64,000 bases of DNA from an uncultured bacterium (GCA_963705505.1 CAVPJU010000010.1:28488-92487), one strand, 5' to 3'; numbered from the stretch's first letter, positions 7,300 to 64,000 are shown. Translations and numbers: made by a program. The notes: generated by a model not told the origin, from the sequence alone.

Positions 7300-7463
7300 C
7301 GATCTTCTCCTCAACGCTCACTGAGACTGATTAAGATGCATATACTCATTCATATATAAAATATACTTTCGTCATTCGGAAATAACTAATATGGTTATTC
7401 GTTCACACACGCCGAAGTAATATTGTCTCCGGCTTCATGGACGTTCCCGCGTTAAAAGTCGAG

Positions 7464-10007: not shown

Positions 10008-10121
10008 GGTTTCTCCTTCAGATTTTTCCGTAAAGAAAATCCGGAACTACATTTACTATGTTTTTCCTTCGCTGCAATACACATCAACAGGCCTGCTTCA
10101 TATGTTGCGATAACGGCTCGA

Positions 10122-11786
10122 TCATGTATCGTTGCTGCTCCTTGCCGCCTTCAAAGCGCAGTTGACGATTGCCTGTGCCTCTTCCTGGATGCGGCGCAAA
10201 TGATCCTTCCCACTAAAACTCTCCGCATAAATCTTGTAGATATCCTCCGTCCCGGAAGGACGAGCCGCGAACCATCCGGTCTCGGCAATAATCTTCAATC
10301 CCCCGATGGAACCGCCATTGCCCGGTGCTTGAGTGAGTATGGCTTGGATTTTTTCGCCCGCCAGATCTGTGGATCGAACCTGGTCGGGTGAGAGTCTTTC
10401 CAGCGCTTCCTTTTGCTCCTGGGTGGCTGGCGCCTCAATCCGTTCGTAAACGGGCTCACCTAACTCACGAGTAAGCTTCCGGTAGATCTCGCCAGGGTCG
10501 CAGCCCATACGTGCTGTGATCTCTGCCGAGAGCAGCGCTGGGATGATACCGTCTTTATCCGTGGTCCATACACTACCATCAAGGCGGAGAAAAGAAGCTC
10601 CCGCGCTTTCTTCACCGACGAAACCAAGCGAACCATCAAGGAGACCATCAACGAACCACTTAAAGCCAACCGGCACCTCATAGAGCTTCCTACCGAGCTT
10701 GGCGGTGACGCGATCTATCATCTGGCTACTTACAACTGTCTTACCTACCGCCGCTTCCTGCCGCCACTTAGGTCGGTATTGGAAAAGGTAGAAGATGGCG
10801 ACTGACAGATAGTCATTGGGCGGCAACAAACCCACACTCTTGGTAACAATGCCGTGTCGGTCATGATCTGTGTCGCAGGCGAATGCGATCTCGAAACGAT
10901 CCTTCAATTTGATTAATCGCTGCATCACATAGGGCGAGGAAGGATCCATGCGTACCTGGCCATCCCAATCAACGGTCATGAAACGAAAGGTCGGATCGAC
11001 CATCTCGTTTACGATCTTGAGGTTCAACCCGTAGCGATCAGCAATCGGACCCCAATAGTGGACCCCGGCTCCACCGAGTGGATCCACGCCCAGGCTGATC
11101 TTCGAACCGCGGATGGCGTCCATGTCAATTACACTGCCGAGGTCGTTCACATAAGCATCAAGGTAGTCGTACCGGTGCGTCGTGTCTGCGCGAAGAGCTT
11201 TTTCAAAGGAAATTCTTTTTACGCCTTGGAGGCGATTTTTGAGAAACTCATTTGCCTTCGCCTCGATCCAGCCGGTAATGTCAGGTCCCGCCGGCCCGCC
11301 GGTGGGGGGATTGTACTTTAAGCCACCATCATCCGGCGGGTTGTGCGAGGGCGTGATCACAATGCCATCGGCAACTCCTGTTGTGCGGTTGCGGTTGTAC
11401 ATTAGAATCGCGTGAGAAACGGCAGGAGTCGGCGTATATTCATCACGCTCAGCGATCATGACATCCAATCCGTTTGCCGCCAGCACTTCAAGCACACTGG
11501 CAAAAGCCGGCACGGAAAGTGCATGGGTGTCCATACCCAGGAACAGCGGGCCATCGATCTTCTGCTGCTGGCGGTACAGGCAAATGGCCTGACTGATTGA
11601 GAGAATATGCCATTCATTGAAAGTCTTCTCGAATGATGAACCACGATGCCCCGAGGTACCGAACACGACCCTTTCTTCAGTAACCGAATGATCAGGCATC
11701 TCACTATAATAAGCAGTGACTAGCTTGGGTATATTAACCAGCCTTGAAGGCTTGACAGGCTTTCCTGCAAAATGATTCAAATTCAT
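10122..11786 (-). CDS. pgm: phosphoglucomutase (alpha-D-glucose-phosphate specific)
   Basis: 554 aa with the active-site TPSHNP and GGPAG.. motifs of the PGM/PMM family. Confidence 0.9.
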   Translation of the reverse strand: MNLNHFAGKPVKPSRLVNIPKLVTAYYSEMPDHSVTEERVVFGTSGHRGSSFEKTFNEWHILSISQAICLYRQQQKIDGPLFLGMDTHALSVPAFASVLEVLAANGLDVMIAERDEYTPTPAVSHAILMYNRNRTTGVADGIVITPSHNPPDDGGLKYNPPTGGPAGPDITGWIEAKANEFLKNRLQGVKRISFEKALRADTTHRYDYLDAYVNDLGSVIDMDAIRGSKISLGVDPLGGAGVHYWGPIADRYGLNLKIVNEMVDPTFRFMTVDWDGQVRMDPSSPYVMQRLIKLKDRFEIAFACDTDHDRHGIVTKSVGLLPPNDYLSVAIFYLFQYRPKWRQEAAVGKTVVSSQMIDRVTAKLGRKLYEVPVGFKWFVDGLLDGSLGFVGEESAGASFLRLDGSVWTTDKDGIIPALLSAEITARMGCDPGEIYRKLTRELGEPVYERIEAPATQEQKEALERLSPDQVRSTDLAGEKIQAILTQAPGNGGSIGGLKIIAETGWFAARPSGTEDIYKIYAESFSGKDHLRRIQEEAQAIVNCALKAARSSNDT

Positions 11787-12041
11787 TGCATAACGACCTG
11801 ATGCTGTTCTAAATCATGTATGAATAAATAAGACAATAAAGAATCCGGAAGCCGCTATATCAAAAACCAAGACCCCAACCTTATTCTAAACAATTATTAT
11901 TAAGGTATTGTGAAAATCAGAGCAATAGAAACCGATGAATGAATTTTTTATCAGATTTTTACGCGAGACTATATGTTAATTCGTCTGATATTTCGCATGC
12001 TTTAGCGAACGTGATTTGTAAAAATCCTGAACATTTGTTAG

Positions 12042-41479: not shown

Positions 41480-41552
41480 GGGCGGGCAAAAATCTGCTTT
41501 TATAACTAAAATTAGTCATTGACCGCGGTTAAAATATCCGTGAAACTGAGTA

Positions 41553-42323
41553 TTGCCGATTATTTCCGGCTGCGGGCGTGGTTTTAATAGGGGTAGCGTA
41601 TGGTTTTTTAATTTCCCGTGGGTGCAGGTATTCTTTTTAGAGCCGGTGAGGGAGATTGATTCTATCTTGAAAGCTGTATTGCTTCTCATAGCGCTTGCGG
41701 GTTTATGTTTTGCGGCATCGTGCTACGACTCTGAAGAAAAGGAGTCGAGCGTGATGAGGTTCCCGGTCTCGGACCAGGGTGAATTTAATGCGCTCGGAAA
41801 CGCCGTGATCGATAAGAACGTGACGAGCGACGGGAACGGCTCTCTCTCCGTAGATACTCAGTCGCCGGTGAGCATAGAGCTTTTCACGGTGGACGGCTCC
41901 GGCCTCGACCATACACGCGCCGCTTATAAGGCCATGATCAAGACTGAAGGGCTGACTGCCGCAGGGGATACGAAGGGTATAGCGTATCTCGAAATGAAGG
42001 TGCGTTACCCCGGAGGGGAGGAGCTCGTTTCCCGCGGCCCGCGCATCCCGCCTACGGGGACGACCGATTGGATGCCGGCTGAAGCCGTGCTCTATGCGGA
42101 TAAAGGCGTAAAACCTGACAGGGTCTCGCTCTCTCTTGTGGTCGACGGGAAAGGGAAGGTCTGGATAGACGACGTAATGCTGGTCACGCAGCCCCTAAGG
42201 CTCGAGTACCTCTTTTGGGGGAACACTGTTGTCTGGATAGTACTAATTATATATATTTATCAACTACTCGCGAAACAAAAAAGGCTCCGAAGGGAGCTCG
42301 GCTCGATGAGTCAGGGAACTTAA
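41553..42323 (+). CDS. hypothetical exported protein with N-terminal signal/lipoprotein-like segment and C-terminal TM anchor
   Basis: Hydrophobic N-terminus ..LKAVLLLIALAGLCFAASC and a C-terminal helix VVWIVLIIYIYQLL. The real start may be the TTG near 41658. Confidence 0.45.
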   Translation: MPIISGCGRGFNRGSVWFFNFPWVQVFFLEPVREIDSILKAVLLLIALAGLCFAASCYDSEEKESSVMRFPVSDQGEFNALGNAVIDKNVTSDGNGSLSVDTQSPVSIELFTVDGSGLDHTRAAYKAMIKTEGLTAAGDTKGIAYLEMKVRYPGGEELVSRGPRIPPTGTTDWMPAEAVLYADKGVKPDRVSLSLVVDGKGKVWIDDVMLVTQPLRLEYLFWGNTVVWIVLIIYIYQLLAKQKRLRRELGSMSQGT

Positions 42324-50451: not shown

Positions 50452-51699
50452 ATGGAAAGAGCAGCAGATAAAAAGACAGTTTTCGACCCGCTCAGGCTGA
50501 GGGAGGATTTCCCCATTCTCGGGCGGAAGGTAAACGGCAAGCCGCTCGTCTATCTCGACAACGCCGCCACGACGCAGAAACCGAAGCCTGTCATCGATAC
50601 CTTAAAGAATTACTACGAGACGCATAACTCCAATATCCACAGGGGCGTCCACACCCTGAGCTACGAATCCACCGTCTTGTACGAGGATGCGCACAAGAAG
50701 GTCGCCGGGTTCATAGGGGCTCCCGACTGGCGCAGCATCGTATTTACGAGGAACACTACAGAATCGATAAACCTCGTCGCGTACGCGTGGGGGCTTCGTA
50801 ATTTAAAAGAGGGTGACGAGGTCCTAATAACGCTGATGGAGCACCACTCGAATATAGTCCCGTGGCAGATGCTCCGCGATAGAATAGGCGTCAAGCTGAA
50901 TTTTCTTCCCATAGACGGCCGCGGCAACCTGAATCTGGACGAGCTTCCTCGGCTCCTCAATGAGAGAACCAAGCTCGTGGGCATCGTACACGCCTCTAAC
51001 GTGCTGGGCACTATAAATCCGGTAAAGCGCATCGCCGAAGAGGCACGGAAGGTCCGGGCGCTCGTGTTGATAGACGCGGCTCAGTCGGTCCCTCACCTGC
51101 CCGTCGACGTAACGGACATAGGCTGTGATTTCCTCGCGGCTTCCGGGCACAAGATGATGGGACCCACGGGCACGGGGTTCCTGTACGGGAGGCCCGAGCT
51201 GCTGGAAGGGATGGAGCCTTTCCTTTACGGCGGGGACATGATAGAAAAGGTCACGATTGAAAAGTCCACATGGAACGAGCTCCCCTGGAAGTTCGAGGCA
51301 GGCACACCGGACATAGGCGGAGGCATAGCTTTAGGCGCGGCGGTCGATTACCTCGAAAGCGTAGGTCTTGATAACATTATGGCCCACGAAGAGGAACTCC
51401 TCAGATACGCGCTTGAAAAACTTTCAGAGCATGAATGGATAAAGATATACGGGCACGGGAATGGCGAAAGGGTAGGTGTCATATCCTTTAACGTCGAGGG
51501 CATCCACCCCCACGATGTGGCCGGCATACTCGACGAAGATGGTATAGCCGTCCGCTCCGGTCACCACTGCGCCCAGCCTCTCATGGCGGAATTAGGCATG
51601 GACTACACGGTCCGCATGAGCTTTTACCTCTACAACACGAAAGACGAGATAGACCTCGCCGTCCGGGCGCTCAAGAGGGCGAAAAAGATTTTCGGATAA
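50452..51699 (+). CDS. sufS: cysteine desulfurase, SufS-type (class V aminotransferase)
   Basis: PLP-Lys region ..ASGHKMMGPTGTGFLYG.. and active-site Cys ..RSGHHCAQPLM... Confidence 0.9.
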   Translation: MERAADKKTVFDPLRLREDFPILGRKVNGKPLVYLDNAATTQKPKPVIDTLKNYYETHNSNIHRGVHTLSYESTVLYEDAHKKVAGFIGAPDWRSIVFTRNTTESINLVAYAWGLRNLKEGDEVLITLMEHHSNIVPWQMLRDRIGVKLNFLPIDGRGNLNLDELPRLLNERTKLVGIVHASNVLGTINPVKRIAEEARKVRALVLIDAAQSVPHLPVDVTDIGCDFLAASGHKMMGPTGTGFLYGRPELLEGMEPFLYGGDMIEKVTIEKSTWNELPWKFEAGTPDIGGGIALGAAVDYLESVGLDNIMAHEEELLRYALEKLSEHEWIKIYGHGNGERVGVISFNVEGIHPHDVAGILDEDGIAVRSGHHCAQPLMAELGMDYTVRMSFYLYNTKDEIDLAVRALKRAKKIFG

Positions 51700-51838
51700 C
51701 CTCAGCTCATTCGAATTCATCTAAATTAAATTCCCATCATTTCCATTCTCCGGAACTCCCGGCGAACATTACCTCTCTTGGGTTACAGAGCCGCAGTCTG
51801 CGGCTTCTTCCGACATGTTCTTACCCTTCCCAATACCA

Positions 51839-51863
51839 TGAGTGAGCGCACACTCATTTTTTG
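51839..51863 (+). terminator. candidate intrinsic terminator downstream of sufS
   Basis: tgagtg agcgca cactca inverted repeat followed by ttttttg. Confidence 0.4.
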
Positions 51864-51972
51864 TACTATTTTCTGACATACGACAGGGACGGGTTTCATT
51901 AATATCAATCGTTCCCGATAGTTACGATTGGCATTTAACTTTCTTAATAGTAATCGCAAAAGGAGGCTTTGC

Positions 51973-52380
51973 ATGTTGAAAAATAAGACTTTCTCATTCC
52001 CCGCCAGGATGCTGTTTATGATGCTGGTCGTTACTTTAAGTTTTCACATTTTTGTTCCCGTTTCCATCGGTTCGTCTGACGATGAGGTCGTGGAGAAGGG
52101 CCAAAAGGTTTTTCAGGACAAGGGATGTGTGGCGTGTCACTCGATAGGGAAGGGCAAGATCACAGGGCCCGACCTCTTCGGCGTTACTCAAAGGAGAGAT
52201 CCGGCTTGGATTAAGAAATGGATCATGTCCCCCGATACCATGATCATGTCGGACCCCATCGCGAAAGAATTATTCAAACAATACATGGTTCCGATGCCTA
52301 ATCAGGGGCTCACGGACGAACAGGCGGACATACTCATTGAGTATTTCAAGTATCAAGATGCTAACAACGCAAAAAAGTAA
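51973..52380 (+). CDS. monoheme c-type cytochrome (nos-associated)
   Basis: AGGAGG RBS before ATG 51973; signal/TM MLKNKTFSFPARMLFMMLVV...; CVACHS heme motif. Located immediately upstream of nosZ. Confidence 0.75.
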   Translation: MLKNKTFSFPARMLFMMLVVTLSFHIFVPVSIGSSDDEVVEKGQKVFQDKGCVACHSIGKGKITGPDLFGVTQRRDPAWIKKWIMSPDTMIMSDPIAKELFKQYMVPMPNQGLTDEQADILIEYFKYQDANNAKK

Positions 52381-52419
52381 ATCTATGAGAAACCTTTTTA
52401 CACAAGGAGGTACGTAAAC

Positions 52420-54464
52420 ATGTCAGGATTGAAGAAGTGGATCACATTATTGCCGGTTTTTTTCTTGGCTCTGACTACGGTCTTTTTTACGAGCTGTAGG
52501 AATTCCGGTAGTGAGAAGCAGGCGAGTAAACAGGAGACCGTAACATGGGGATTGTCCGAGAGGCGGAGCAGGTAGCGGAGTCGAGGGGTCTTACGCCCAA
52601 GGACGTTGAGGCCGCTCTCAAGACTTACGTGCCTTCGGGGAAATATGACGATTACCTGATGTTTGCCTCCGGAGGACATTCCGGTCAGGTGTTCGTCATT
52701 GGCGTTCCTTCTATGAGGCTCCTCAAAGAGATAGCGGTATTCACGCCGGAGCCCTGGCAGGGATTTGCGACCGGATCGAAGGAGTCGGACGATTTACTGA
52801 AAGAAGGCTATATGCCCAACGGAAAAGACGGAAAGCTTACCTGGGCGGATACACACCACCCCGCTCTAAGCGAGACGAAAGGCGATTACGACGGACAGTT
52901 CTTATTCATAAACGATAAAGCCAATGCGAGGATCGCAGTCATCGACCTCCGCGACTTTGAAGTAAAACAGATCGTAAAGACGCCGAACATGATCTCGGAT
53001 CACGGCGCTACCTTTGTTACCCCGAATACCGAATACGTAATTGAGGGTTCCCAGTATGCAACGCCCCTTCCTTTCGAACGATACGCTCCTATGGATGAGT
53101 ATAAGGACAAATACAGGGGTCTCATTACGTTTCATAAGTTCGACAGGGAGAAGGGAAGGATAGACGAGTCCCAGTCATTCCAGATCGAGCTGCCTCCCTA
53201 CTGGCAGGACCTCTGCGACGCCGGGAAGAAAGTCAGTGAAGGATGGGTATTCTGCAACTCCATAAATACGGAGCTCGCCACAGGCGGCATTGAGCAGGGC
53301 AACCCTCCCTATGAAGCGGGCGTATCTCAAAGAGACATGGACTATATGCACGTAATTAACCTGAACAAGGCCGTCGAGGTTTCAAAAGAGGCGGGCAAGA
53401 CAGAGGTTATTAACGGAATGAAGGTAATTCCGCTCAACACGGCTATCTCGGAAGGTCTTTTGTATTTCATACCGGAGCCCAAGAGCCCCCACGGAGTCGA
53501 TGTAGCCCCGGGAGGAGATTATATAGTCGCTTCCGGCAAGCTCGACACACACGCGACGGTATATTCCTTCGACAAGATAATGGATGCCATGAAAAATAGC
53601 AAAATCGAGGGTAAGGATCCCTTCGGCGTCCCTGTACTGAACTTTAAGGATGTCGTCGCAGCGCAGGTCGAGATAGGCCTCGGGCCTCTCCATACGCAGT
53701 TCGATAACGAGGGTAACGCATATACGAGCGTTTTTATCGAGAGTACGGTTGCAAAATGGAAACTGGGCCCTCCTTACAATACGGGGGCAGACGCCTGGAC
53801 CCTCGTTGAGAAGATGCCGGTTGACTACAACATAGGCCACCTGGTTTGTGCGGAGGGCGATACCGTGTCCCCGGACGGCAAGTACTGTGTCGCGCTGAAC
53901 AAGTGGTCCATAGACAGGTTTACTCCGGTCGGCCCGCTGCATCCTCAGAATTTCCAGCTGATAGACATTTCGGGAAAGAAGATGCAGCTGCTTTACGATA
54001 TGCCTATAGGCTCAGGCGAGCCGCATTACGTTCAGATGATCAAGGCTGACAAGCTCAAACCATGGCTCGTTTATCCGGAGGTGGGATTTGATCCGGCGAC
54101 GATGAGCGTCAATCCCGACGCGGCAAAAGCCGGGGGTGAGAAAGTCGTGCGGAGTAACGGAAAAGTCGAGGTATGGATGACCGCTATCAGGAGCCATTAC
54201 AACCCCGAGCACATAGTCGCGAGCGAAGGGGATAAAGTAATAATACATATCACGAGCGTGGAGCGGGCGAGGGACGCTACACACGGTTTCGCCATCGACG
54301 GCTACAACGTTAACCTGAGCCTGGAGCCGGGTGAAAGCGAGACGGTGGAGTTCGTCGCGGACAAGGTTGGTGTGTATCCGTTCTACTGCACGGAGTTCTG
54401 CTCGGCGCTTCACCTGGAGATGATGGGTTATCTCCTTGTTGAGCCAAAACAGCCAAAGTCATGA
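52420..54464 (+). CDS. nosZ: nitrous-oxide reductase NosZ, Sec/lipoprotein-type (clade II-like); signal peptide and mature domain in different frames
   Basis: C-terminal CuA cupredoxin site ...FYCTEFCSALHLEMMGY; N-terminal beta-propeller region. The signal peptide MSGLKKWITLLPVFFLALTTVFFTSC (no twin-Arg) starts at 52420 and ends at a stop near 52570. The body ORF starts at 52545 in the -1 frame. One extra G in the G4 run at 52547-52550 would fuse the two parts. Confidence 0.85.
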
Positions 54465-54558
54465 ACTACTGAGGGCGCCCCATCCGGACCTTTAGTCACG
54501 GGAAGTGAAGGAGGGGGCGTCCTCGGTTCTAACCCAAAACGGAATAAGGAGGTTTGTT

Positions 54559-54928
54559 ATGAAAAAGTTAATAGCGCCGTTTTTACTTGTAACTTTGTTA
54601 GTGTTAGCGGGCGCCGTTTACGGAGCCCAAAATGCAAGAGACTGCCCAGTCGTGGCAGAAGCAGGCAAACGATACCAGGGCAGCTGTTATGAAAGTCTAC
54701 GGCGAGCTCGAGAAGCTGGATGTCAAGTCAGCAGCCGATGCGAAGGATCTTATTGCCGATGCCGTCGCCCAGCTCGGCGAAGGGGATAAGTACCTTAAGC
54801 AGGGGGACGAAGCCATGAATAAACAGGATTGGGAAAAGGCTAATTACGGTTATAACATGGCATGGCAGTATTACGTAAAAGCCGCAACATCCGGATTAAA
54901 TGCAAAGAGAATTTTAACCGGACAATAA
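54559..54928 (+). CDS. small secreted protein downstream of nosZ, apparent +1 frameshift between signal peptide and body
   Basis: AGGAGG RBS; signal peptide MKKLIAPFLLVTLLVLAGAVYGAQ; helical body MQETAQSWQKQ...AWQYYVKAA in the next frame. The A4 run at 54629-54632 is the likely indel site. Confidence 0.5.
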
Positions 54929-55061
54929 AAACTCAGGAGAACGGCGGTTCTCCCATACGACTGGGGACGCTCTTGAATAGCGGATATTTTAGAGTATTCC
55001 CCGCCGGTTGTTCAGAAGGGCCGATCTGAATACGATGTTATTACGAACGGAGGTTTAAAAA

Positions 55062-55715
55062 ATGAAAGAAAACGAATTGATATTCGGGCCGCGAATACCG
55101 AAGGAGCTGTGGGAGAAGGAGAGAAAGAGGTTTCTTGTTCCTTCGATCGTCCTCGTCGTTGCCGCGGTGCTGCTTTTCATCTCGATATTTCTCCCTTATT
55201 GGAAACTTACACTTTTCGCGCCTCAGTATCCTCAGGGTCTCAAAGCCAGTATGTACGTAAACAGGCTTGCGGGGGATATTCAGGAGATAGACGGGCTCAA
55301 TCACTATATAGGAATGAAGCCCATGGACGAGGCTGCCGTGCTCGAACGCACGCTCAGCATATTCATGATCATCGGTATAGCGCTCCTCATCGCGGGGGCC
55401 GTATACGTGCACAGCCCGATTGCGCTTTTCCTGTGCATCCCGGCGGTGCTTTACCCCGCGTTCTTTCTGGGCGACCTCTATTTCTGGATGCGGACCTTCG
55501 GCACGAACCTTAATCCGCACGCCCCTTTAAGCAGTGCGATAAAGCCCTTCGTACCACCCATACTCGGCGTGGGCCAGATCGCACAATTCAAGACTATCGC
55601 GAGCTGGGAGATAGGTCTCTATATGTCTATCGCGGCTTCGGTACTGATTGTCATAGGCCTCTACTTTCATCGTAAAGCTTATAAGCCGTTAATAGTAAAT
55701 GAAGGCGTCAGGTAG
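55062..55715 (+). CDS. nosB: NosB-like integral membrane protein (nos cluster)
   Basis: 217 aa, ~4-5 TM helices, positioned between nosZ and nosD as in clade II nos clusters. Confidence 0.55.
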   Translation: MKENELIFGPRIPKELWEKERKRFLVPSIVLVVAAVLLFISIFLPYWKLTLFAPQYPQGLKASMYVNRLAGDIQEIDGLNHYIGMKPMDEAAVLERTLSIFMIIGIALLIAGAVYVHSPIALFLCIPAVLYPAFFLGDLYFWMRTFGTNLNPHAPLSSAIKPFVPPILGVGQIAQFKTIASWEIGLYMSIAASVLIVIGLYFHRKAYKPLIVNEGVR

Positions 55716-55741
55716 AGAAAGGTGTAAATCCCGGGTGACCC

Positions 55742-57142
55742 GTGACTAAATATTGCCTTCTACATTTTTCCACGATCGTTATTCTTGCCCTCTCCGGAGC
55801 TGTGAACGGAGCGGCTGTCGCCAGGACAATCCATGTCTCACCGGACGGCCCCGTAAGATCAATTACTGAGGCTATAGCTTCTGCTGAGAGCGGTGATACC
55901 ATACGCATCCTGAAGGGAGACTATAAAGAACATATAGTAATCAACAAGACTTTAACAATTATAGGAGAGGGTTATCCCCGCATAGACGGCGGGGGGAAAG
56001 GAGTCGTCGTTTTAATAAAAGCCCCGAGTACCGTATTCAGGGGTATTCATGTGACGGGGAGCGGCGACAGCCTGAACCTTGAGGACGCTGGTATTATCCT
56101 CGATTCCGCACACGGGAGCGTCATAAAAGAAAACCGGCTCGATGATGTGCTCTTCGGTATATACCTCAAAAACTCTCCCGACAGTGTAATAGAAAAGAAC
56201 GTCGTCGAGGGCAAGCGGCTTACACTTCCCGAACGCGGCGACGGAATAAAGCTCTGGTACAGCTCAGGGACGAAGATACTCTATAACCGGGTCCTCCACA
56301 CTAGGGACCTTGTTATTTGGTGGTCGAGCAATACGCTTATAAAAGGGAATACCGTCGAGGAAGGAAGATACGGACTTCATTACATGTCGAGTAACCATAA
56401 CAGGTTCGAGGACAACATTTTCAGGAATAACTATGTGGGCGGGTTCCTCATGTATAGCAAGGGGATTGAGTTTTACAGGAATAGGTTCGTCAGTAACCGC
56501 GGCACGGGGTCGGGCTACGGAGTCGGGTTCAAGGACCTCGACGACGTAGTAGCCAAAGACAACCTTATCGCGGACAACCGCGTTGGAATCTTTCTCGATA
56601 ACTCGCCCTACCTCATCGATTCGTGGAATAATATAAGCGACAACGTTATAGCTTTCAACGACATAGGCGTCTCCCTCATGCCTTCGATAAGGAGGAACGC
56701 TTTTCACAAGAACAGCTTCGTAGATAACGACGAGCAGGTGGAGATAAGGGGAGGGGGAGAGCTTGCAGGGAACGAATGGTCCAAGGACGGCAGCGGGAAT
56801 TACTGGAGCGATTACATCGGATATGACGAGGACGGGGACGGGATAGGAGAGATACCCTACAAGTCCGAGAGCCTCTTCGAGAGCCTTATAGACTCGAAGC
56901 CCGAGCTCAGGATATTCGTGTTCAGCCCTGTTGCGAAGGCAATAGAGCTCGCTTCTCAGGCGTTTCCCGTGATCAAGCCCGAGCCCAAGCTCACGGACGA
57001 CTATCCGCTCGTCAGCTCGGCGATACCGCCTGACCTCAGGGCAGGCGGGAGGGAAAGGGAGTTGTCGCCGAGGCTTCTTTTCCTGTCCCTCTCTATGGTG
57101 ATGCTTCCCCTGATCTTTTACGGCTACATTATGAAACGGTAA
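55742..57142 (+). CDS. nosD: NosD, periplasmic parallel beta-helix copper-processing protein
   Basis: Signal peptide, repeated right-handed beta-helix units (NxxxxNxxxGI...), C-terminal TM. 466 aa. Confidence 0.82.
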   Translation: MTKYCLLHFSTIVILALSGAVNGAAVARTIHVSPDGPVRSITEAIASAESGDTIRILKGDYKEHIVINKTLTIIGEGYPRIDGGGKGVVVLIKAPSTVFRGIHVTGSGDSLNLEDAGIILDSAHGSVIKENRLDDVLFGIYLKNSPDSVIEKNVVEGKRLTLPERGDGIKLWYSSGTKILYNRVLHTRDLVIWWSSNTLIKGNTVEEGRYGLHYMSSNHNRFEDNIFRNNYVGGFLMYSKGIEFYRNRFVSNRGTGSGYGVGFKDLDDVVAKDNLIADNRVGIFLDNSPYLIDSWNNISDNVIAFNDIGVSLMPSIRRNAFHKNSFVDNDEQVEIRGGGELAGNEWSKDGSGNYWSDYIGYDEDGDGIGEIPYKSESLFESLIDSKPELRIFVFSPVAKAIELASQAFPVIKPEPKLTDDYPLVSSAIPPDLRAGGRERELSPRLLFLSLSMVMLPLIFYGYIMKR

Positions 57143-57155
57143 ACGGGAGCTTGAA

Positions 57156-58055
57156 TTGATTGAGATTAAGAACGTAACGAAGCGTTTCGGAAAGCTGACT
57201 GCAGTCGATTCGGTGAGCTTCAGGGCTGAAAAGGGTGAAGCGGTTTCCCTCCTCGGCGCGAACGGCGCCGGAAAGAGCACGCTTATCAAATGCATACTCG
57301 GGCTCCTCGATTATACGGGCGAGATTACGGTGAGCGGGCTCAGGGTGAAAGACCACCCGAAGGAGGCGAAGTCCCTAATCGGATACCTGCCGCAGGAGCC
57401 TCTTTTCTACGATATGCGCACACTCGATATAGTACGTTTCTTCGCGCGGCTCAGGAAAATTGACGAGAGGGGTTCATTGTCGGTCCTGGAGAAAGTGGGG
57501 CTTGGGGAGCACTCTTCCAAATACGCTTCAGAGCTTTCGGGAGGCATGAGGCAGCGCCTCTCTTTCGCTATAGCGCTTCTATCAGAGCCTATGTTCCTGA
57601 TACTGGACGAGCCCACTTCCAACCTCGATGCTCACGCGCGCGCTGAATTCCTCAGGCTAATCAAGGAATACAAGGAGAACGGTAAGACGGTGATCTTTTC
57701 CTCGCACAGGCTCGACGAGGTGGACTATCTGGCTGACAGGGCGGTCCTGATGAAAGACGGCAGTGTCGTCATGGACGAGGAGCCGCACAGGCTGAGGCAG
57801 TCCCTCGGGCTCGGCACGAAGATGAATATCGCTGTCCCTGAGGAGTATGTCACACTGGCGTATTCGGCGTTCGCCGGTGCCGGCATAATAGTTCACGGCA
57901 GAAACGGAAGGGGCTTCCTCGTGGAGGTGAAGAGCGGGGACAGCCTCCATCCTCTGAGGGAGCTGATGTCGAGAGACATACCCGTCCTCGGGTTCAGCGT
58001 CGAGGAGCCTACCATGGAAAATATACTCGAAGGAGCGGGAAAAGATGGAGCTTAG
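57156..58055 (+). CDS. nosF: NosF, ABC transporter ATP-binding protein
   Basis: Walker A GANGAGKST, signature LSGGMRQRL, Walker B LILDEPTSNLD. Confidence 0.82.
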   Translation: MIEIKNVTKRFGKLTAVDSVSFRAEKGEAVSLLGANGAGKSTLIKCILGLLDYTGEITVSGLRVKDHPKEAKSLIGYLPQEPLFYDMRTLDIVRFFARLRKIDERGSLSVLEKVGLGEHSSKYASELSGGMRQRLSFAIALLSEPMFLILDEPTSNLDAHARAEFLRLIKEYKENGKTVIFSSHRLDEVDYLADRAVLMKDGSVVMDEEPHRLRQSLGLGTKMNIAVPEEYVTLAYSAFAGAGIIVHGRNGRGFLVEVKSGDSLHPLRELMSRDIPVLGFSVEEPTMENILEGAGKDGA

Positions 58056-58884
58056 AAATATTCTCATACTGGCGGGGAAGGAAACGAGGGAGTCGCTCAA
58101 GAACAGGTGGTTCGTTTTATATACCGTCTCTTTTTCCGTCCTCGCCGTGCTCATCTTTTCTATAGCGCCCGGGAGGGGCGAGATCACGGGCATATCGGGC
58201 TACGGCAGGACGGCCGCGAGCCTGGTCAACCTCGTGCTTCTCTTTGTCCCGCTAATAGCGCTTATAACCGGAGCGATAAGCATATCCGGGGAGAGAGAGA
58301 ACGGAACGCTGCAGTACCTGCTCTCGCACCCCGTAACCAAATCCGAGGTGTTCGTGGGCAAGTTCTGCGGGATACTCATCCCGATCTGTTTTTCAATTTC
58401 GCTCGGTTTCGGGCTCGCCGGTATAGGAGTCGCGCTCAGAGGCGGGAGCGGGAACTCGGCGGAGTTCATACTGACTGCGCTCCTATCGGGGCTCCTGGCT
58501 GCGTCCCTGCTGAGCGTGGGGTTTGTCGTCTCGGTGTTTTCGGGCAGGGCTTCGAAGGCGATAGGCGTCGCGGTGTTCCTCTGGCTCCTTTTTATCGTTC
58601 TCGGAGACCTCGGCATCATGGGCACAGCTGCAGCGATGGACCTCGGCATAAAGCAGGTCTTCGTGCTCGCGCTGCTAAACCCGGCGGAGGTGTTCAAGAT
58701 CGCTTCCGTGCTCGTGCTCAGTCCGCGGTTCGAGATACTGGGCCCAGTCGGAGTTTACGCCGTCAGGACGTTCGGCAGGGAAGGGGTGGTCTATCTGCTC
58801 CTCTCCGTCATGGCGCTATGGACCATCATACCGTTCGTATATGCATTTATAACTTTCAGCATATTCAGGAGGGAAGAAGCATGA
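58045..58884 (+). CDS. nosY: NosY, ABC-2 type permease
   Basis: 279 aa, 6-TM permease. Overlaps nosF and nosL. Confidence 0.78.
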   Translation: MELRNILILAGKETRESLKNRWFVLYTVSFSVLAVLIFSIAPGRGEITGISGYGRTAASLVNLVLLFVPLIALITGAISISGERENGTLQYLLSHPVTKSEVFVGKFCGILIPICFSISLGFGLAGIGVALRGGSGNSAEFILTALLSGLLAASLLSVGFVVSVFSGRASKAIGVAVFLWLLFIVLGDLGIMGTAAAMDLGIKQVFVLALLNPAEVFKIASVLVLSPRFEILGPVGVYAVRTFGREGVVYLLLSVMALWTIIPFVYAFITFSIFRREEA

Positions 58885-59315
58885 AATACTTGCTCATACT
58901 GCTTGTGCTCCTGGGTTTCGCCGCCTGTAAGGATAAAATCGATACCGGGCCTCATATTATTCATTACGGGGAAGATGTCTGCGAGAGGTGCAAGATGATT
59001 ATAAGCGACAAGCGTTTTGCCGCCCAATACATCACGGAGAGCGGCGAGGCTAAAAAATTCGACGATATAGGGTGCATGATGGAGGCGCTCAAAGAGAAAA
59101 ACAAGGACGGTGGCGGCGTGCTCGCCGTCTATGTCACCGACTACGTCACCGGGGAATGGATAGACGGCGGAAAGGCTTTTTATCTCAAAAACACGGAGCT
59201 CAAGACCCCTATGGGGTACGGTATTGCAGCTTTCGGAAACGAGGAATCGATGCGGGCGAGCCCATTTTATAAGGACGGGCGGGCGCTCGGGGGAATCGAT
59301 GACCTCCAGAAATAA
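58881..59315 (+). CDS. nosL: NosL, copper-chaperone lipoprotein
   Basis: MKYLLILLVLLGFAAC (lipobox), then a conserved NosL core (...GPHIIHYGEDVCERCKMII...DIGCM...). It sits in frame inside the spurious 402-aa ORF 58107..59315. Confidence 0.8.
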   Translation: MKYLLILLVLLGFAACKDKIDTGPHIIHYGEDVCERCKMIISDKRFAAQYITESGEAKKFDDIGCMMEALKEKNKDGGGVLAVYVTDYVTGEWIDGGKAFYLKNTELKTPMGYGIAAFGNEESMRASPFYKDGRALGGIDDLQK

Positions 59316-59334
59316 ATAATCCCGGACGGTTCCC

Positions 59335-59922
59335 ATGGATAAAAGGATTATAGATCCTAGTGAGAAGATTCAGAGCGCCGCGCTTGCGCTCTTTATCAAA
59401 AAAGGCATAGCGGGCACGACGACAAAAGAGATCGCGAGGAAGGCGGGTGTATCCGAAGGCTCCATTTATAATTACTTCGAGAGCAAGGGAGACCTCGCGT
59501 ATAAGCTCTTTGTCCGGTATATGGACAAGTTCAGGGACGAGCTCTCGGTAAAATCGGCAGGCGCGGACGGCCCCGCGGGAAAGCTATCCGCCGTCGTCGG
59601 GGCTTTCTTCGGATTTGCCGAGAGAGAGCCCGAGGCATACGCCTATATAATGATAGGACACTACACCGAGCTCCAGAAAATGAAATATGACAAAAAGAAG
59701 CCCAAGGACGTATTCGTCGAAATAATCGGGGAAGGCGTTAAAAACGGCGTATTCATGAGCATGGACGAGAACCTCGGGGCAGCCTTCGTCATAGGGATGG
59801 TTACCAGGGCGATCCTTTTTCATAAGAGCGGCATGCTCGGTATGCCCTATGCGAGGCTTATAGAGGATACCGTGGCCTCTTCCTTACGCGTCCTCGGCGC
59901 AGACACGCCGCGGCCCTTGTAA
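59335..59922 (+). CDS. TetR/AcrR family transcriptional regulator
   Basis: HTH region TTTKEIARKAGVSEGSIYNYFESKGDL. Confidence 0.8.
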   Translation: MDKRIIDPSEKIQSAALALFIKKGIAGTTTKEIARKAGVSEGSIYNYFESKGDLAYKLFVRYMDKFRDELSVKSAGADGPAGKLSAVVGAFFGFAEREPEAYAYIMIGHYTELQKMKYDKKKPKDVFVEIIGEGVKNGVFMSMDENLGAAFVIGMVTRAILFHKSGMLGMPYARLIEDTVASSLRVLGADTPRPL

Positions 59923-60035
59923 ACCCGTATAAAATTTTCATAGTATTAAACTTATCCGCTGGAATTATATCCCGGAATGTGCAGGTTATATTTATACTTT
60001 ATGCATGCTGGTAAAAATTACACGGAGGATATAGA

Positions 60036-60428
60036 ATGCTCGTAAAAGAATGTATGACCGTAAACCCTGTGACCTTTTCCCCTAAAGAGGACGTCAGGGT
60101 CGCCTTTAACACACTTACCGACCGCAAGATTCGTCAGGCGCCTGTACTCGAGAATGGAAAGCTGGCCGGTATAGTCACGGACAGGGACCTCAGGCTCGCG
60201 GTGGTGGAGACCCTTACGGAGCCGGGTTTGACTGTGGGTTCCGTCATGACGCGGGACCCCGTAACGGTCAACGAGAATTCTTTACTCAAAGATGCGGCCA
60301 GGGTGATCGGTAAAAACAAGTTCAACGCGCTCCCGGTGCTTTCCGATTCCGGTGAGCTCGTGGGCGTCCTCACTACCACCGATATACTCAACGGTCTCGT
60401 TAGAGCGCTCGATGCGGAGAAAAAATGA
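60036..60428 (+). CDS. CBS-domain pair protein
   Basis: 130 aa, two CBS motifs. Confidence 0.7.
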   Translation: MLVKECMTVNPVTFSPKEDVRVAFNTLTDRKIRQAPVLENGKLAGIVTDRDLRLAVVETLTEPGLTVGSVMTRDPVTVNENSLLKDAARVIGKNKFNALPVLSDSGELVGVLTTTDILNGLVRALDAEKK

Positions 60429-60486
60429 CGACCCGTTTCTTTCTATGTTTAAGGCATTAATATATTGTTGACAAAGGAGAGCCTTT

Positions 60487-60927
60487 ATGAAGATTGAGAA
60501 AATATTGTTTCCGACGGATTTCTCCGCCAGGTCGCTCAGCGCGAGGGAGCACGCGCTTTACCTCGCCCGGGCCCTCGACTCGTCCGTTTATCTGCTTCAC
60601 GCGATAGAGCCTCTGAAATACGAGGAGGTGGACGACGAGATCAGGGAATTTTATAAGACGCTCGAGACCCAGCTCGGTGAAAAAATGGAACGGGAAAAAG
60701 AGGTCTTTGAAAAAAGGGGTCTAAGGGTGGATACGGACATAGTTATCGGTCAGAGGTGGAGGGTAATAGACACATATGCCAAAGAGAAGGGAATCGACCT
60801 GATAATCATGGGGTCGCACGGCATCAGGACCGAGACGGGGGAGGTTTCCGTGGGCACGACTAGCCACAAGGTCATGTTCTCGTCCCCATGCCCCGTTCTG
60901 ATAGTGAGGCACGACGAAGCCCGTTAG
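60487..60927 (+). CDS. universal stress protein (UspA family)
   Basis: 146 aa: ILFPTDFS..., ...DLIIMGSHG..., ...S.VLIV. Confidence 0.8.
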   Translation: MKIEKILFPTDFSARSLSAREHALYLARALDSSVYLLHAIEPLKYEEVDDEIREFYKTLETQLGEKMEREKEVFEKRGLRVDTDIVIGQRWRVIDTYAKEKGIDLIIMGSHGIRTETGEVSVGTTSHKVMFSSPCPVLIVRHDEAR

Positions 60928-60991
60928 TAATATTCTTAATGAGATTTTTACAAAACTGATATAAAATTAGGGCATATTATTACAGGAGGAG

Positions 60992-61810
60992 ATGCTTGAT
61001 ATGACGAGATTCCTGCCGGATTTGAAGCGGTTTGTCCTTTTAATCGCTGTCGTTGCGGCACCATTTCTATTATCGTCCGGGCCGGGCTTAAACGCGTACG
61101 CTCAGGACGGCGGTACTCAGGCCGCGCCTATAAAACCCGTGATAGACCCGGTCGCAGACAAGCTGCTGAAGTCTATGGGGGCTACGCTCTCTTCCGCCAA
61201 GGCTTTCACTTTCAGGGCCGATATAAACTTCGACCAGCTCCTTGTTTCCGGGCAGCAGATTCAATACGGAGGGACGGCGAACCTGACGGTCGAGAGGCCC
61301 AACAAGGTTTATGTTGAGTTCACGGGGGACCTGGACGGAAAAAGAATATGGTATACGGGTAAGGACGTTACAGTGCTCGACGTGAATAAGAATTTTTACG
61401 GCAAGCTGGCCGTACCCGCAACTATTGATGAAGCCATGGATAACCTTATGGATCAATACGGGTTCACCCTCCCGCTTTCCGACGTAATGGTGAGCGACCC
61501 GTATAAGGCGTTTATCAGAAACGTCGCCGCGGGCGTAGTCATCGGGGACAGCATGATAAACGGTCAGCAGTGCAAGCACCTGGCTTTCGTCGAGAAGTAT
61601 ATAGATTGGCAGATATGGATTTCAGACGGGGCGCAGGCGCTTCCCTGCAAGCTGGTCATAACGTACAAGACCATACCGGGCGGGCCTCAATATTCGGCGG
61701 TATTTTCCAACTGGGCGATCAACCCGGCTATAAACGCGTCGGTATTCACGCCTGTGCTGCCTGAAGGGGCAGAACGGATAGAGTTTATAAAAATGGGTAA
61801 TCAACAATAA
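60992..61810 (+). CDS. periplasmic DUF2092-like (LolA-like fold) protein
   Basis: Signal peptide, 272 aa. Family assignment is tentative. Confidence 0.45.
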   Translation: MLDMTRFLPDLKRFVLLIAVVAAPFLLSSGPGLNAYAQDGGTQAAPIKPVIDPVADKLLKSMGATLSSAKAFTFRADINFDQLLVSGQQIQYGGTANLTVERPNKVYVEFTGDLDGKRIWYTGKDVTVLDVNKNFYGKLAVPATIDEAMDNLMDQYGFTLPLSDVMVSDPYKAFIRNVAAGVVIGDSMINGQQCKHLAFVEKYIDWQIWISDGAQALPCKLVITYKTIPGGPQYSAVFSNWAINPAINASVFTPVLPEGAERIEFIKMGNQQ

Positions 61811-61823
61811 TCCGGGGGCTGAT

Positions 61824-62921
61824 ATGAGAAACCTGAGACAAATGATAAATAGAACGACTATAGCTGCTGCCGTATTCGCGTTCGCAGCATCGGGGGTATT
61901 AATGACGGGAGACGCCTATTCCCGGGGCGGGTTCGGAGGAGGAGGGTTCGGAGGCGGTTACAGGGGCGCGGATTTCGGCTCAGGAATGGGCGACAGGGGC
62001 TTCGGAAACGTCAGGTATTCGGGGAACAGCATGGGTGACATGTCCGGCTACAAGGGCTTTCAGGGGGATAATTTCGGAAGCAAACAGTCCTTCCAGAACT
62101 CCGATTTCAGTCAGGACAAGAGCGACTTCGGCGGGGATCAGGACTCATTCTCGGGCCGCCAGTCCGAGTCCCAGGACAATACGGGCATGACCCAACGCCA
62201 GGCCACGAGCCAGAACCGCGCCATAGAATCCGATAACGGGCAGAATACCAGCAAAACGACCAACGGCACGACGACTAACGGCAAGACCAACAGCAGCACG
62301 AACAGCAACAGCACGAACAAAAATAACACCAACAACACCAATAACAGCAACAATTCCAACAACAAGAATAACAACAACAATAACAACAATAATAATAATA
62401 ATAACACCTACAACACCTACAACAATTACAACAACTACAATCACTATTGGGGCGGATACTGGGGCTCATGGGGCGGTTATTACGGCGGGTGGGCTTTCGC
62501 GGGCGGCCTGGCCATGGGAGCCGCAATAGCGAGTATCCCGGCAAGCTCCTCCACTGTCTATGTATCGGGAAATCCGTTCTATTATTCGGACGGCGTGTAC
62601 TACGCTCCTCAGGGCAGCCAGTACATAGTCGTTCCGCCTCCGCCGGGCGCAGTCGTCGATACGCTCCCACCGTCATGCGACACCGTATATGCAGGTGATG
62701 ATTCGTATTTTGACTGCGGGGGCGCGTTCTATTCGTCTGCGGACGCGGGGTTTCAGGTCGTACAGCCCCCTGTGGGCGCGACAGTGGACTCTCTCCCCCA
62801 GGGAGCGCAGCGGAAAACAATAAACGGGACGACTTACTATCTCTTCGGCGCCGCGTATTACCAGCCGTTTTACAGCGGGAGCAGCGTGATATACCAGGTA
62901 GTCCCCGATCCGACTGCTTAA
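61824..62921 (+). CDS. secreted Gly-rich / poly-Asn low-complexity protein with C-terminal duplicated Pro/Cys motif
   Basis: Signal peptide; GGFGGGGFGGGY...; ~50-residue N/T/K run encoded by an (AAC/AAT)n tract; YWGGYWGSWGGYYGGW; two copies of VVPPPPGAVVDTLP... / VVQPPVGATVDSLP.... Confidence 0.55.
   Translation: MRNLRQMINRTTIAAAVFAFAASGVLMTGDAYSRGGFGGGGFGGGYRGADFGSGMGDRGFGNVRYSGNSMGDMSGYKGFQGDNFGSKQSFQNSDFSQDKSDFGGDQDSFSGRQSESQDNTGMTQRQATSQNRAIESDNGQNTSKTTNGTTTNGKTNSSTNSNSTNKNNTNNTNNSNNSNNKNNNNNNNNNNNNNTYNTYNNYNNYNHYWGGYWGSWGGYYGGWAFAGGLAMGAAIASIPASSSTVYVSGNPFYYSDGVYYAPQGSQYIVVPPPPGAVVDTLPPSCDTVYAGDDSYFDCGGAFYSSADAGFQVVQPPVGATVDSLPQGAQRKTINGTTYYLFGAAYYQPFYSGSSVIYQVVPDPTA
62300..62450 (+). 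repeat. imperfect (AAC/AAT)n trinucleotide microsatellite inside the CDS
   Basis: aacaacaagaataacaacaacaataacaacaataataataataat... The coding frame gives poly-Asn. Confidence 0.8.
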
Positions 62922-62957
62922 GCGACCCGACAGGGGACTCATCAGGGCTTTACGGCT

Positions 62958-64000
62958 TCAGAGCCTTTTCAGGGACGTGTATAACTGTCCTGCAGCCAGA
63001 GGCAGCAGGCTCATGATTGCTATGAGCGTCCAGCCGCCGCGGCCGGGATCGACGACCCCCAGCACATTCGCGACTGGTTCTATATAGACCGCGGCCAGGA
63101 TTATCAGCGTGCAGAGAGCTATGGCTCCCCAAACGTATACGTTGCGTGTCACCTCGTTCTTCAACATCCCCGACCTGGCGCCGCGCATGTTGAATACGTG
63201 CAGGATCTGAGCGAAAGCCAGAGTGAGGAACGAGACCGAGACGGCCCTTTTGTCCCCGAATCCGAGTTTATACATAGCCAGGAGTAACGCACCGAGCACG
63301 GCTGCGGTGATGACCGTGCCGTAACCCGCTATACCGAGCCAGCTCCTCTGCGTTATGATGTGCTCTTTCGGGTCTCTCGGCGGGGAACGCATGACCCTTT
63401 CGTCACCTTCGCCCATCCCGAGGGCGAGCGCCGGGAATACGTCCGTCACGAGGTTAAGGAATAGTATCTGGAGGGGCATGAGCGGAAGGGGGATATGGAC
63501 GAAGGAAGCGATAGTCACGACCATGATTTCGCTCACGTTGCATGAAAGGAGGTAGAATATGAACTTCCTTATGTTCCCGAATATAATCCTTCCCTGCTCC
63601 ACGGCGTGGACTATGGTCGAAAAAGAGTCGTCCTTGAGAACTATATCGGCTGCCTCCTTAGCCACCTGAGTCCCCCGCTTCCCCATCGCGATGCCTATGT
63701 CCGCCTGCTTGAGCGCCGGAGCGTCGTTAACGCCGTCCCCGGTCATCGCGACTACGAACCCCTCTTCCTGATAGAATTTAACGAGCGCGAGCTTCTGCTC
63801 CGGGCTTACGCGCGCTAATATCAGCGACTCGGCTACGCTTATTTTAAATTCCTCGGGCAGCTCTTCGATCGCTTTCAGGTCTTTACCGTGAATTACGGGT
63901 TCGTCTGCCCTGTCCGTCAGTCCGACCGCGAGAGCGATATTCCTTGCTGTCGAGGGGTGGTCGCCCGTTACCATTACGACCTTTATCCCGGCCTCTAGAC
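62958..64000 (-). CDS. P-type cation-transporting ATPase (type II, Ca/Mg-like), C-terminal ~345 aa; gene continues past the window end
   Basis: Hinge motif MTGDGVNDAPALKQADIGIAMG followed by C-terminal TM helices (M5-M10). Confidence 0.82.
   Translation of the reverse strand, partial: LEAGIKVVMVTGDHPSTARNIALAVGLTDRADEPVIHGKDLKAIEELPEEFKISVAESLILARVSPEQKLALVKFYQEEGFVVAMTGDGVNDAPALKQADIGIAMGKRGTQVAKEAADIVLKDDSFSTIVHAVEQGRIIFGNIRKFIFYLLSCNVSEIMVVTIASFVHIPLPLMPLQILFLNLVTDVFPALALGMGEGDERVMRSPPRDPKEHIITQRSWLGIAGYGTVITAAVLGALLLAMYKLGFGDKRAVSVSFLTLAFAQILHVFNMRGARSGMLKNEVTRNVYVWGAIALCTLIILAAVYIEPVANVLGVVDPGRGGWTLIAIMSLLPLAAGQLYTSLKRL

Follow-up and report, generated by a model that had tools for sequence, protein, structure and literature searches.

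The nitrous oxide (N2O) reductase gene nosZ on a 64,000-nucleotide (nt) stretch of DNA from an uncultured bacterium (GCA_963705505.1, CAVPJU010000010.1:28488-92487; this whole stretch is referred to as the window) is split in the sequence as deposited, the signal peptide being encoded in one reading frame and the mature enzyme in another. Comparison with conspecific strains traced the split to a cluster of three single-nucleotide insertions or deletions (indels), and a further 1-nt insertion breaks the gene that follows nosZ. The nosZ frame error is unique to this assembly, while the gene itself is of a known kind. A local consensus or assembly error arising from a mixture of strains is slightly favoured over a very recent inactivation of the gene, with a confidence that amounts to about an even chance.

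Position of the break in nosZ

The 5′ open reading frame (ORF) was found on the plus strand at 52420-52575 (51 codons); it begins with MSGLKKWITLLPVFFLALTTVFFTSC, reads MSGLKKWITLLPVFFLALTTVFFTSCRNSGSEKQASKQETVTWGLSERRSR in full and ends at the stop codon TAG 52573-75. The NosZ body is encoded by a second ORF on the same strand (52545-54464, 639 codons, beginning MGIVREAEQVAESRGLTPKDV), which lies one frame apart from the first and overlaps it by 31 nt. The initial annotation had described a Sec or lipoprotein-type signal peptide that a net −1 shift puts out of frame with the mature enzyme, and this layout was recovered at the same coordinates. The body frame is blocked upstream by TAA at 52527-29, so the two frames can be joined only within 52530-52572. 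It had also been claimed that one G added to the GGGG run at 52547-50 joins the frames, and this insertion did yield a continuous protein of 681 amino acids (aa). The break sits in the short and little conserved linker that runs from the lipobox cysteine to the first conserved helix.

Two conspecific strains were available as Logan contigs, one represented by L001, L134 and L138 (SRR21359223) and the other by L135 and L137 (SRR21359053). Both strains carry an intact nosZ of 680 aa, and in both the junction reads GACCGCTAACATGGG[A/G]TTGTCCGAAAGTGCGGAG, whereas the window has GACCG-TAACATGGGGATTGTCCGAGAG-GCGGAG, with GACCGTAACATGGGGATTGTCCGAGAGGCGG as the patch deposited. Relative to the conspecifics, the window lacks a C after 52540, carries one additional base in GGGGA 52547-51 and lacks a T after 52562, which amounts to three indels within 23 nt and a net change of −1. 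The first two cancel each other, turning ANM into VTW. In relatives, the same nucleotides also encode, in frame, the residues GLSE that follow in frame 1 (52549-60), and the frame of the window is then lost at GAGAG/GCGG, which places the uncompensated break at 52561-63.

These alignments did not uphold the placement of the lesion at the GGGG run. A length error of this homopolymer, or phase variation at it, would account for the split in so far as one more G restores a single ORF and one of the three indels relative to L134 falls in the run, but it is regarded as very improbable. Compared with both conspecific strains the region 52547-51 has one base too many, not too few, and the missing bases lie after 52540 and 52562; the uncompensated indel stands in at most a GG context. 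Insertion of a G into the run gives ...WGIVREAEQ..., where relatives have GLSE[S] from the same nucleotides, whereas repair at 52563 gives ...WGLSE[S/R]AEQVAESRGL..., which fits the L[S/P]Ex-AEQ pattern of relatives. On this comparison, repair in the GGGG run is the least parsimonious option. The run had further been called slippage-prone. It is short and common, with 232 G4 runs present in the window, and it falls far below typical phase-variable homopolymer tracts, which usually comprise 7 or more bases. The conspecifics have GGGA or GGGG-T at this site with the frame intact, no frame-breaking length variation was seen there in relatives, and the second frameshift (54634) lies outside any homopolymer.

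Identity, integrity and uniqueness of the gene

The identification of the gene as nosZ was confirmed by a match of the repaired protein to the NCBIfam model TIGR04246 (Sec-dependent clade II) over the full model (852.7 bits, positions 1-578 of 578), well above the curated equivalog cut-off of 625 bits. The clade I or Tat-type model TIGR04244 gave 426.7 bits, under its own cut-off. Solved NosZ structures in the PDB matched the body with a best E value of 1e-103. The nearest database proteins were intact NosZ of 674-682 aa (P0002-P0016), 78-83% identical and aligned from residue 1, which originate from metagenome-assembled genomes (MAGs) of Thermodesulfobacteriota and 'Candidatus Dadabacteria'; nosZ has been reported earlier in Dadabacteria MAGs (PMC5877337). 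The deposited signal-less NosZ of 639 aa is itself present as database entry P0001.

In an alignment of 54 sequences, H146, H147, H195, H311, H358, H425, H536, H622, C657, C661, H665 and M668 occupy invariant columns, and the CuA motif (HGF...CTEFCSALHLEM) is retained together with all conserved histidines. The sole departure of the window from columns in which the other 53 of the 54 sequences agree is the conservative change I391M, while other sequences show up to 8 such departures. The ratio of nonsynonymous to synonymous substitution rates (dN/dS) of the body was 0.086 when compared with the conspecific allele L134 and about 0.03 in the comparison with L002; of the three sequences, the window NosZ had the shortest nonsynonymous branch. 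The NosZ body, judged by these comparisons, is free of decay.

The leader contains K5/K6, a 17-residue hydrophobic core and an F-T-S-C26 lipobox, with no RR motif. A PROSITE PS51257-style expression matched MSGLKKWITLLPVFFLALTTVFFTSC, so that lipidation is predicted; the NCBIfam lipoprotein matches to the leader were weak (E 0.008). The N-terminus of the window NosZ is 88% identical to that of the intact L001 NosZ, and the lipobox cysteine is kept in close relatives. The full-length model match, the conserved copper ligands and a leader of Sec and not twin-arginine type are shared with clade II Sec-dependent NosZ, and the content of cytochrome c, membrane protein and nosDFYL is that of clade II nos clusters. 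The window departs from this group in that the leader is one frame off the enzyme as deposited, coming into frame only after a 1-nt repair, and in the lipobox, which is common to close relatives but not to more distant clade II proteins. The locus is best described as an ordinary lipoprotein-type Sec-dependent clade II nosZ in a complete nos cluster of a Dadabacteria- or Thermodesulfobacteriota-like genome. A lipobox (xxSC or xxGC) was observed in NosZ of this subclade (window 52420-52497, L001-L015 and L059-L080), implying a predicted lipid-anchored N2O reductase, and more distant clade II relatives (e.g., L010-L013) are without the lipobox cysteine.

The split itself was found nowhere else. 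All 124 related nosZ loci having the N-terminal region carry the signal peptide in frame, and none is split (0/124). The junction-spanning DNA pattern gave 0 matches in metagenomes, a metagenome protein scan returned nothing nearer than 81%, and a search with the N-terminal 241-aa protein for the same allele had a best match 78% identical. Exact look-ups of the 639-aa NosZ, the 217-aa protein, cytochrome c, SufS and NosD returned no independent assembly of the allele. Contigs from ERR12036778, ERR15459715 and ERR15459708 encode CcmE and ABC proteins identical to those of the window, and these contigs stop short of nosZ.

The second frameshift and the possible causes of both

The gene downstream of nosZ, which encodes a conserved 122-aa secreted protein, is also broken. 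Its signal peptide MKKLIAPFLLVTLLVLAGAVYGAQN and its body MQETAQSWQKQANDTR... lie in neighbouring frames, and the window reads AATGCAAGAG at the junction, where an extra G at 54634 (AAT[G]CAAGAG) shifts the frame and at the same time supplies the ATG with which the body ORF starts. The corresponding stretch in relatives is ...GA[QE]N/[QE]ETAxSWQ..., and when the G is removed the protein has 122 aa, which is also the modal family length. The gene is conserved downstream of nosZ in this lineage (at least 37 related loci) and is intact in 37 of the 37 related loci holding the region; a search with the repaired protein gave a best intact match 81% identical. No Pfam or NCBIfam family was found for the 122-aa protein. 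Both this frameshift and the strain-mosaic setting of the locus had been overlooked in the initial annotation, and both bear on the cause.

The two lesions together comprise four 1-nt indels within 2.1 kb. Both fall in the linkers between signal peptide and mature protein, in or at the margin of the strain-mosaic nos stretch. It is in these linkers that the two genes vary most in sequence and in length, and the linkers make up about 100 nt of the approximately 8 kb of nos genes. Outside the nos block the conspecific contigs are fully syntenic with the window and 98.2-98.7% identical over approximately 31 kb of flanks, and no frameshifting indels were found in conserved genes in this alignment. 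Identity to the conspecifics drops to 55-82% at 52400-56570. Along the profile it falls from approximately 98.5% to 91% (52350-52650), to approximately 75% in the nosZ core and to 55% in the small gene; it then rises to 97% over the first half of the membrane protein (an island at 55170-55470), is again 60-70% up to and including the start of nosD and stands at 99% from 56570. By a site-by-site classification, the window nosZ core represents a third allele, about as far from the L001 type as from the L002 type. Two further assemblies (L057 and L058) combine window-like nosB/nosD with an L001-like small gene, from which it follows that alleles are shuffled at the nos locus in nature. The nosZ-nosD segment is, as far as these alignments can tell, a recombination mosaic within one species.

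The mixed-strain error would have arisen as follows. In a segment that is highly polymorphic and recombining, co-occurring strains would differ by single-nucleotide polymorphisms and by small indels in the linker; their reads would have been merged into one consensus at the nosZ linker, and the same merging would have taken place at 54634 in the neighbouring gene. We infer that the indels arose during assembly and not in the cell. The real organism would then export a normal NosZ of about 680 aa, held by a lipid anchor, and would reduce N2O in the periplasm, and the underlying in-frame haplotypes would resemble ...CCGCTAACATGGG[A/G]TTGTCCGARAGTGCGG... and AAT[C/G]AAGAG. The extra bases do stand at polymorphic sites: GGGG+A in the window corresponds to GGGG(T) in L135 and to GGGA in L134, and AAT+G+CAA at 54634 corresponds to a CAx or a GAx codon in relatives. 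The inserted bases look like two alleles read side by side. A local consensus error fits because of the location of the indels, their clustering and this 'both alleles' pattern. It also fits the MAG source contig, which at 866 kb is about as long as those usually obtained from long reads; metagenome assemblies of this kind are known to suffer from small-indel frameshifts (PMC9262707; bioRxiv 10.1101/2021.08.23.457338). Genes split by indels in MAGs and long-read genomes share with the present case the adjacent ORFs in different frames, the occurrence in one assembly only, the intact relatives and the purifying selection on the rest of the gene. The present case differs from them in that no such errors were seen elsewhere in the window and that, of the four indels, a single one involves a homopolymer. 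Generic homopolymer miscalling is a poorer likeness, since the indels here are confined to strain-variable linkers, so that a local mixed-haplotype cause has to be assumed.

Several points weigh against an assembly error. No homopolymer-length differences were found over the approximately 31 kb, and the T7 tract at 52455-61 is the same as in the conspecifics; such clean flanks exclude a generally error-prone assembly, so that a special local cause is needed. Were the contig assembled from short reads with a large k, three indels within 23 nt would imply a haplotype that really exists. Any mixing of strains left the divergent nosZ core uncorrupted, its 1.9 kb forming a clean ORF. Since variation affects most positions of the linker, the coincidence of indels with polymorphic sites also carries less weight there.

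The main competing explanation, to which a little less than an even chance is assigned, is that the frameshifts are real, very recent and inactivating for both nosZ and the small secreted-protein gene, possibly with recombination or heteroduplex repair as their source. The strain would at best make a signal-less cytoplasmic NosZ from ATG 52545, with no copper centres, and would not reduce N2O. The deposited sequence reads this way, and the high-quality flanks, with their conserved genes free of frameshifting indels, argue against a sloppy assembly. Two lesions in one operon fit relaxed selection after the first, and the locus is a recombination hot spot in which heteroduplex repair over indel-rich linkers could give out-of-frame mosaics. 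Loss of export would be expected to inactivate the enzyme because NosZ matures in the periplasm, where the NosL chaperone or NosL/NosDFY is needed (PMC8457098; bioRxiv 10.64898/2025.12.16.694761). Against a genuine inactivation stand the lack of decay elsewhere (the NosZ body, nosD, nosF, nosY and nosL are all intact), the odd mutational pattern of three indels within 23 nt and the absence of either lesion from any other assembly searched. Under neutral decay, the chance of both lesions landing in approximately 100 nt of linker out of approximately 8 kb is of the order of 1e-4. Neutral pseudogene decay is disfavoured because the operon is otherwise intact, both lesions are in linkers and three indels occur in 23 nt. 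Recent denitrification pseudogenes of individual strains do resemble the window nosZ, with a frame broken close to the 5′ end and a gene intact in all other respects, but the body here has no further lesions, its dN/dS is not elevated and both lesions are in linkers. Of the causes named in the initial annotation, an assembly error and a genuine inactivating mutation are both still live, whereas an error at the G4 homopolymer and a slippage-prone site are not supported.

It is very unlikely that the frameshifts are both real and functional, acting through programmed −1 frameshifting or through re-initiation at internal Shine-Dalgarno (SD)-ATG pairs that would give signal-less forms. The ATGs of the two body ORFs follow SD-like motifs at good spacing (AGGAG-8 nt-ATG 52545 and GGAG-6 nt-ATG 54632), and signal-less products could be translated from these pairs. 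The G inserted at 54634 itself makes the second ATG, both breaks stand directly after signal peptides, and a single-tRNA (tRNA-Gly) −1 slip on G_GGA 52548-51 would give exactly the fusion proposed in the initial annotation. Programmed −1 frameshifting, as on A_AAA_AAG of dnaX or in transposases of insertion sequence elements, likewise involves overlapping ORFs of which a −1 shift gives the full-length protein. Unlike those systems, the window offers no slippery heptamer, stimulatory structure or conservation: an X_XXY_YYZ heptamer was not found in 52530-52572, where only the single codon G_GGA is present, the fold of 52552-52660 is unremarkable (minimum free energy −37.7 kcal/mol, z = −0.99 against shuffles), no Rfam match was obtained in 51500-55200, and the two-frame layout was seen in 0 of 124 nosZ and 0 of 37 small-gene relatives. 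The two genes would also need opposite shifts, −1 for nosZ and +1 for its neighbour. In intact relatives, the sequences of these SD-like motifs and of the nosZ ATG are read in frame as ordinary codons (KQET..M; YGA). No route is known by which a NosZ kept in the cytoplasm could obtain its Cu centres or reach the copper-insertion machinery and the electron donors of the periplasm. Least probable of all is the proposal that both frameshifts are genuine and selected, with NosZ and its 122-aa partner restarted without signal peptides, each from an SD-ATG pair where the mature protein begins, as a cytoplasmic NosZ-like system or a regulated on/off switch of export.

The frame error has consequences for annotation, as pipelines call a signal-less NosZ of 639 aa and a 98-aa fragment of the neighbouring gene, and whichever way the organism is then classed, as reducing N2O or not, the ground for it could be wrong. 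Should the lesions be real, the population has just lost N2O reduction while its conspecifics keep it, which would be a small but concrete case of strains differing in an N2O sink. A more useful by-product is the within-species mosaic nosZ-nosD segment, 55-82% identical inside flanks of approximately 98.5%; another is the conserved, unannotated 122-aa secreted protein that accompanies nosZ across the lineage.

The nos cluster and its surroundings

The genes are ordered as cytochrome c, nosZ, small secreted protein, 217-aa membrane protein, nosD, nosF, nosY, nosL and a TetR regulator (Table 1). The L001 counterpart of the cytochrome, 94% identical in aa sequence, matches Pfam Cytochrom_C. The SD sequence AAGGAGG upstream of nosZ is unchanged in L001, L135 and L002. 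The membrane protein has the same length in the conspecifics and is conserved beside nosD in all close relatives (same length, 90% aa identity); it gave no Pfam or NCBIfam match. NosF, NosY and NosL are 98.6-100% identical in aa sequence to those of L001.

Table 1. Features of the nos region, in window coordinates.
Feature	Coordinates	Strand	Remarks
c-type cytochrome	51928-52380	+	CxxCH; likely start ATG 52009, 123 aa; NCBIfam heme-binding domain matches
Shine-Dalgarno sequence AAGGAGG	52404-52410	+	9 nt upstream of nosZ ATG 52420; read from sequence
nosZ 5′ fragment	52420-52575	+	Lipobox FTSC, Cys26 codon 52495-97, start of linker; then out of frame to the stop codon
Putative internal restart site	52532-52547	+	AGGAG 52532-36, 8 nt, then ATG 52545 of the body ORF; restart role inferred only
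Lesion	52540-52563	+	Three 1-nt indels, net −1; alignments to conspecific strains
nosZ body	52545-54464	+	639 codons, intact; seven-bladed propeller (CuZ) and cupredoxin (CuA); TIGR04246 and PDB NosZ matches
Frameshifted gene for conserved 122-aa secreted protein	54559-54928	+	Signal peptide from ATG 54559 in frame 1; body 54632-54928 in frame 2
217-aa membrane protein	55062-55715	+	Multi-pass, intact; nosB position of clade II, the nosB label being positional only
nosD	55742-57142	+	Intact; length as in L001; TIGR04247, 423 bits; 83% aa identical to L001
nosF	57156-58055	+	Intact; length as in L001; Pfam ABC match from L001 counterpart
nosY	58045-58884	+	Intact; length as in L001; 100% identical to conspecifics
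nosL	58881-59315	+	Intact; length as in L001; Pfam NosL match from L001 counterpart

A number of candidate explanations and features were discarded. The view that A-type (L002) and B-type (L001) alleles are finely interleaved in the lesion patch was weak, the nosZ core being a third allele. Many blastn 'indels' inside nosZ and nosD proved to be paired alignment artefacts between alleles of 75% identity. A methylation-like motif, GAGAC, occurs near two of the indel sites, but it must be common in the window, where its other copies are without frameshifts. The small proteins NosP and NosQ were set aside; they belong to clade I systems (bioRxiv 10.64898/2025.12.16.694761). Further split genes in the window were not confirmed, since a codon-usage frame map and Pfam showed ndk, xseB, ispA, rpsT and a carbamoyltransferase to be normal; the gene of a DUF2252 protein is cut by the window edge.

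Some minor differences were observed in the flanks. The flank 56570-63435 contains a single indel relative to L134, an in-frame one of 3 nt in the gene at 61824-62921 (62403-05), where AAC is added behind a TAATAATAAT repeat. A hypothetical gene at 41553-42323 encodes 256 aa in the window and in the ERR12036778 and ERR15459715 contigs and 233 aa in L137 and L138, and a 1-nt difference from the conspecifics lies at a stop codon (42322). Near its 5′ end the window is without 8 nt at 41550 compared with L137 and has 2 extra nt at 41602 compared with L138, and the gene call differs; these indels total −6 relative to L137 and are the only ones near a coding start in the flanks. On the minus strand, 4915-11813 holds ORFs of 799, 847 and 554 aa with codon-usage scores of 0.09-0.12 per codon, against 0.25-0.33 elsewhere in the window, which suggests a different composition or a foreign origin.

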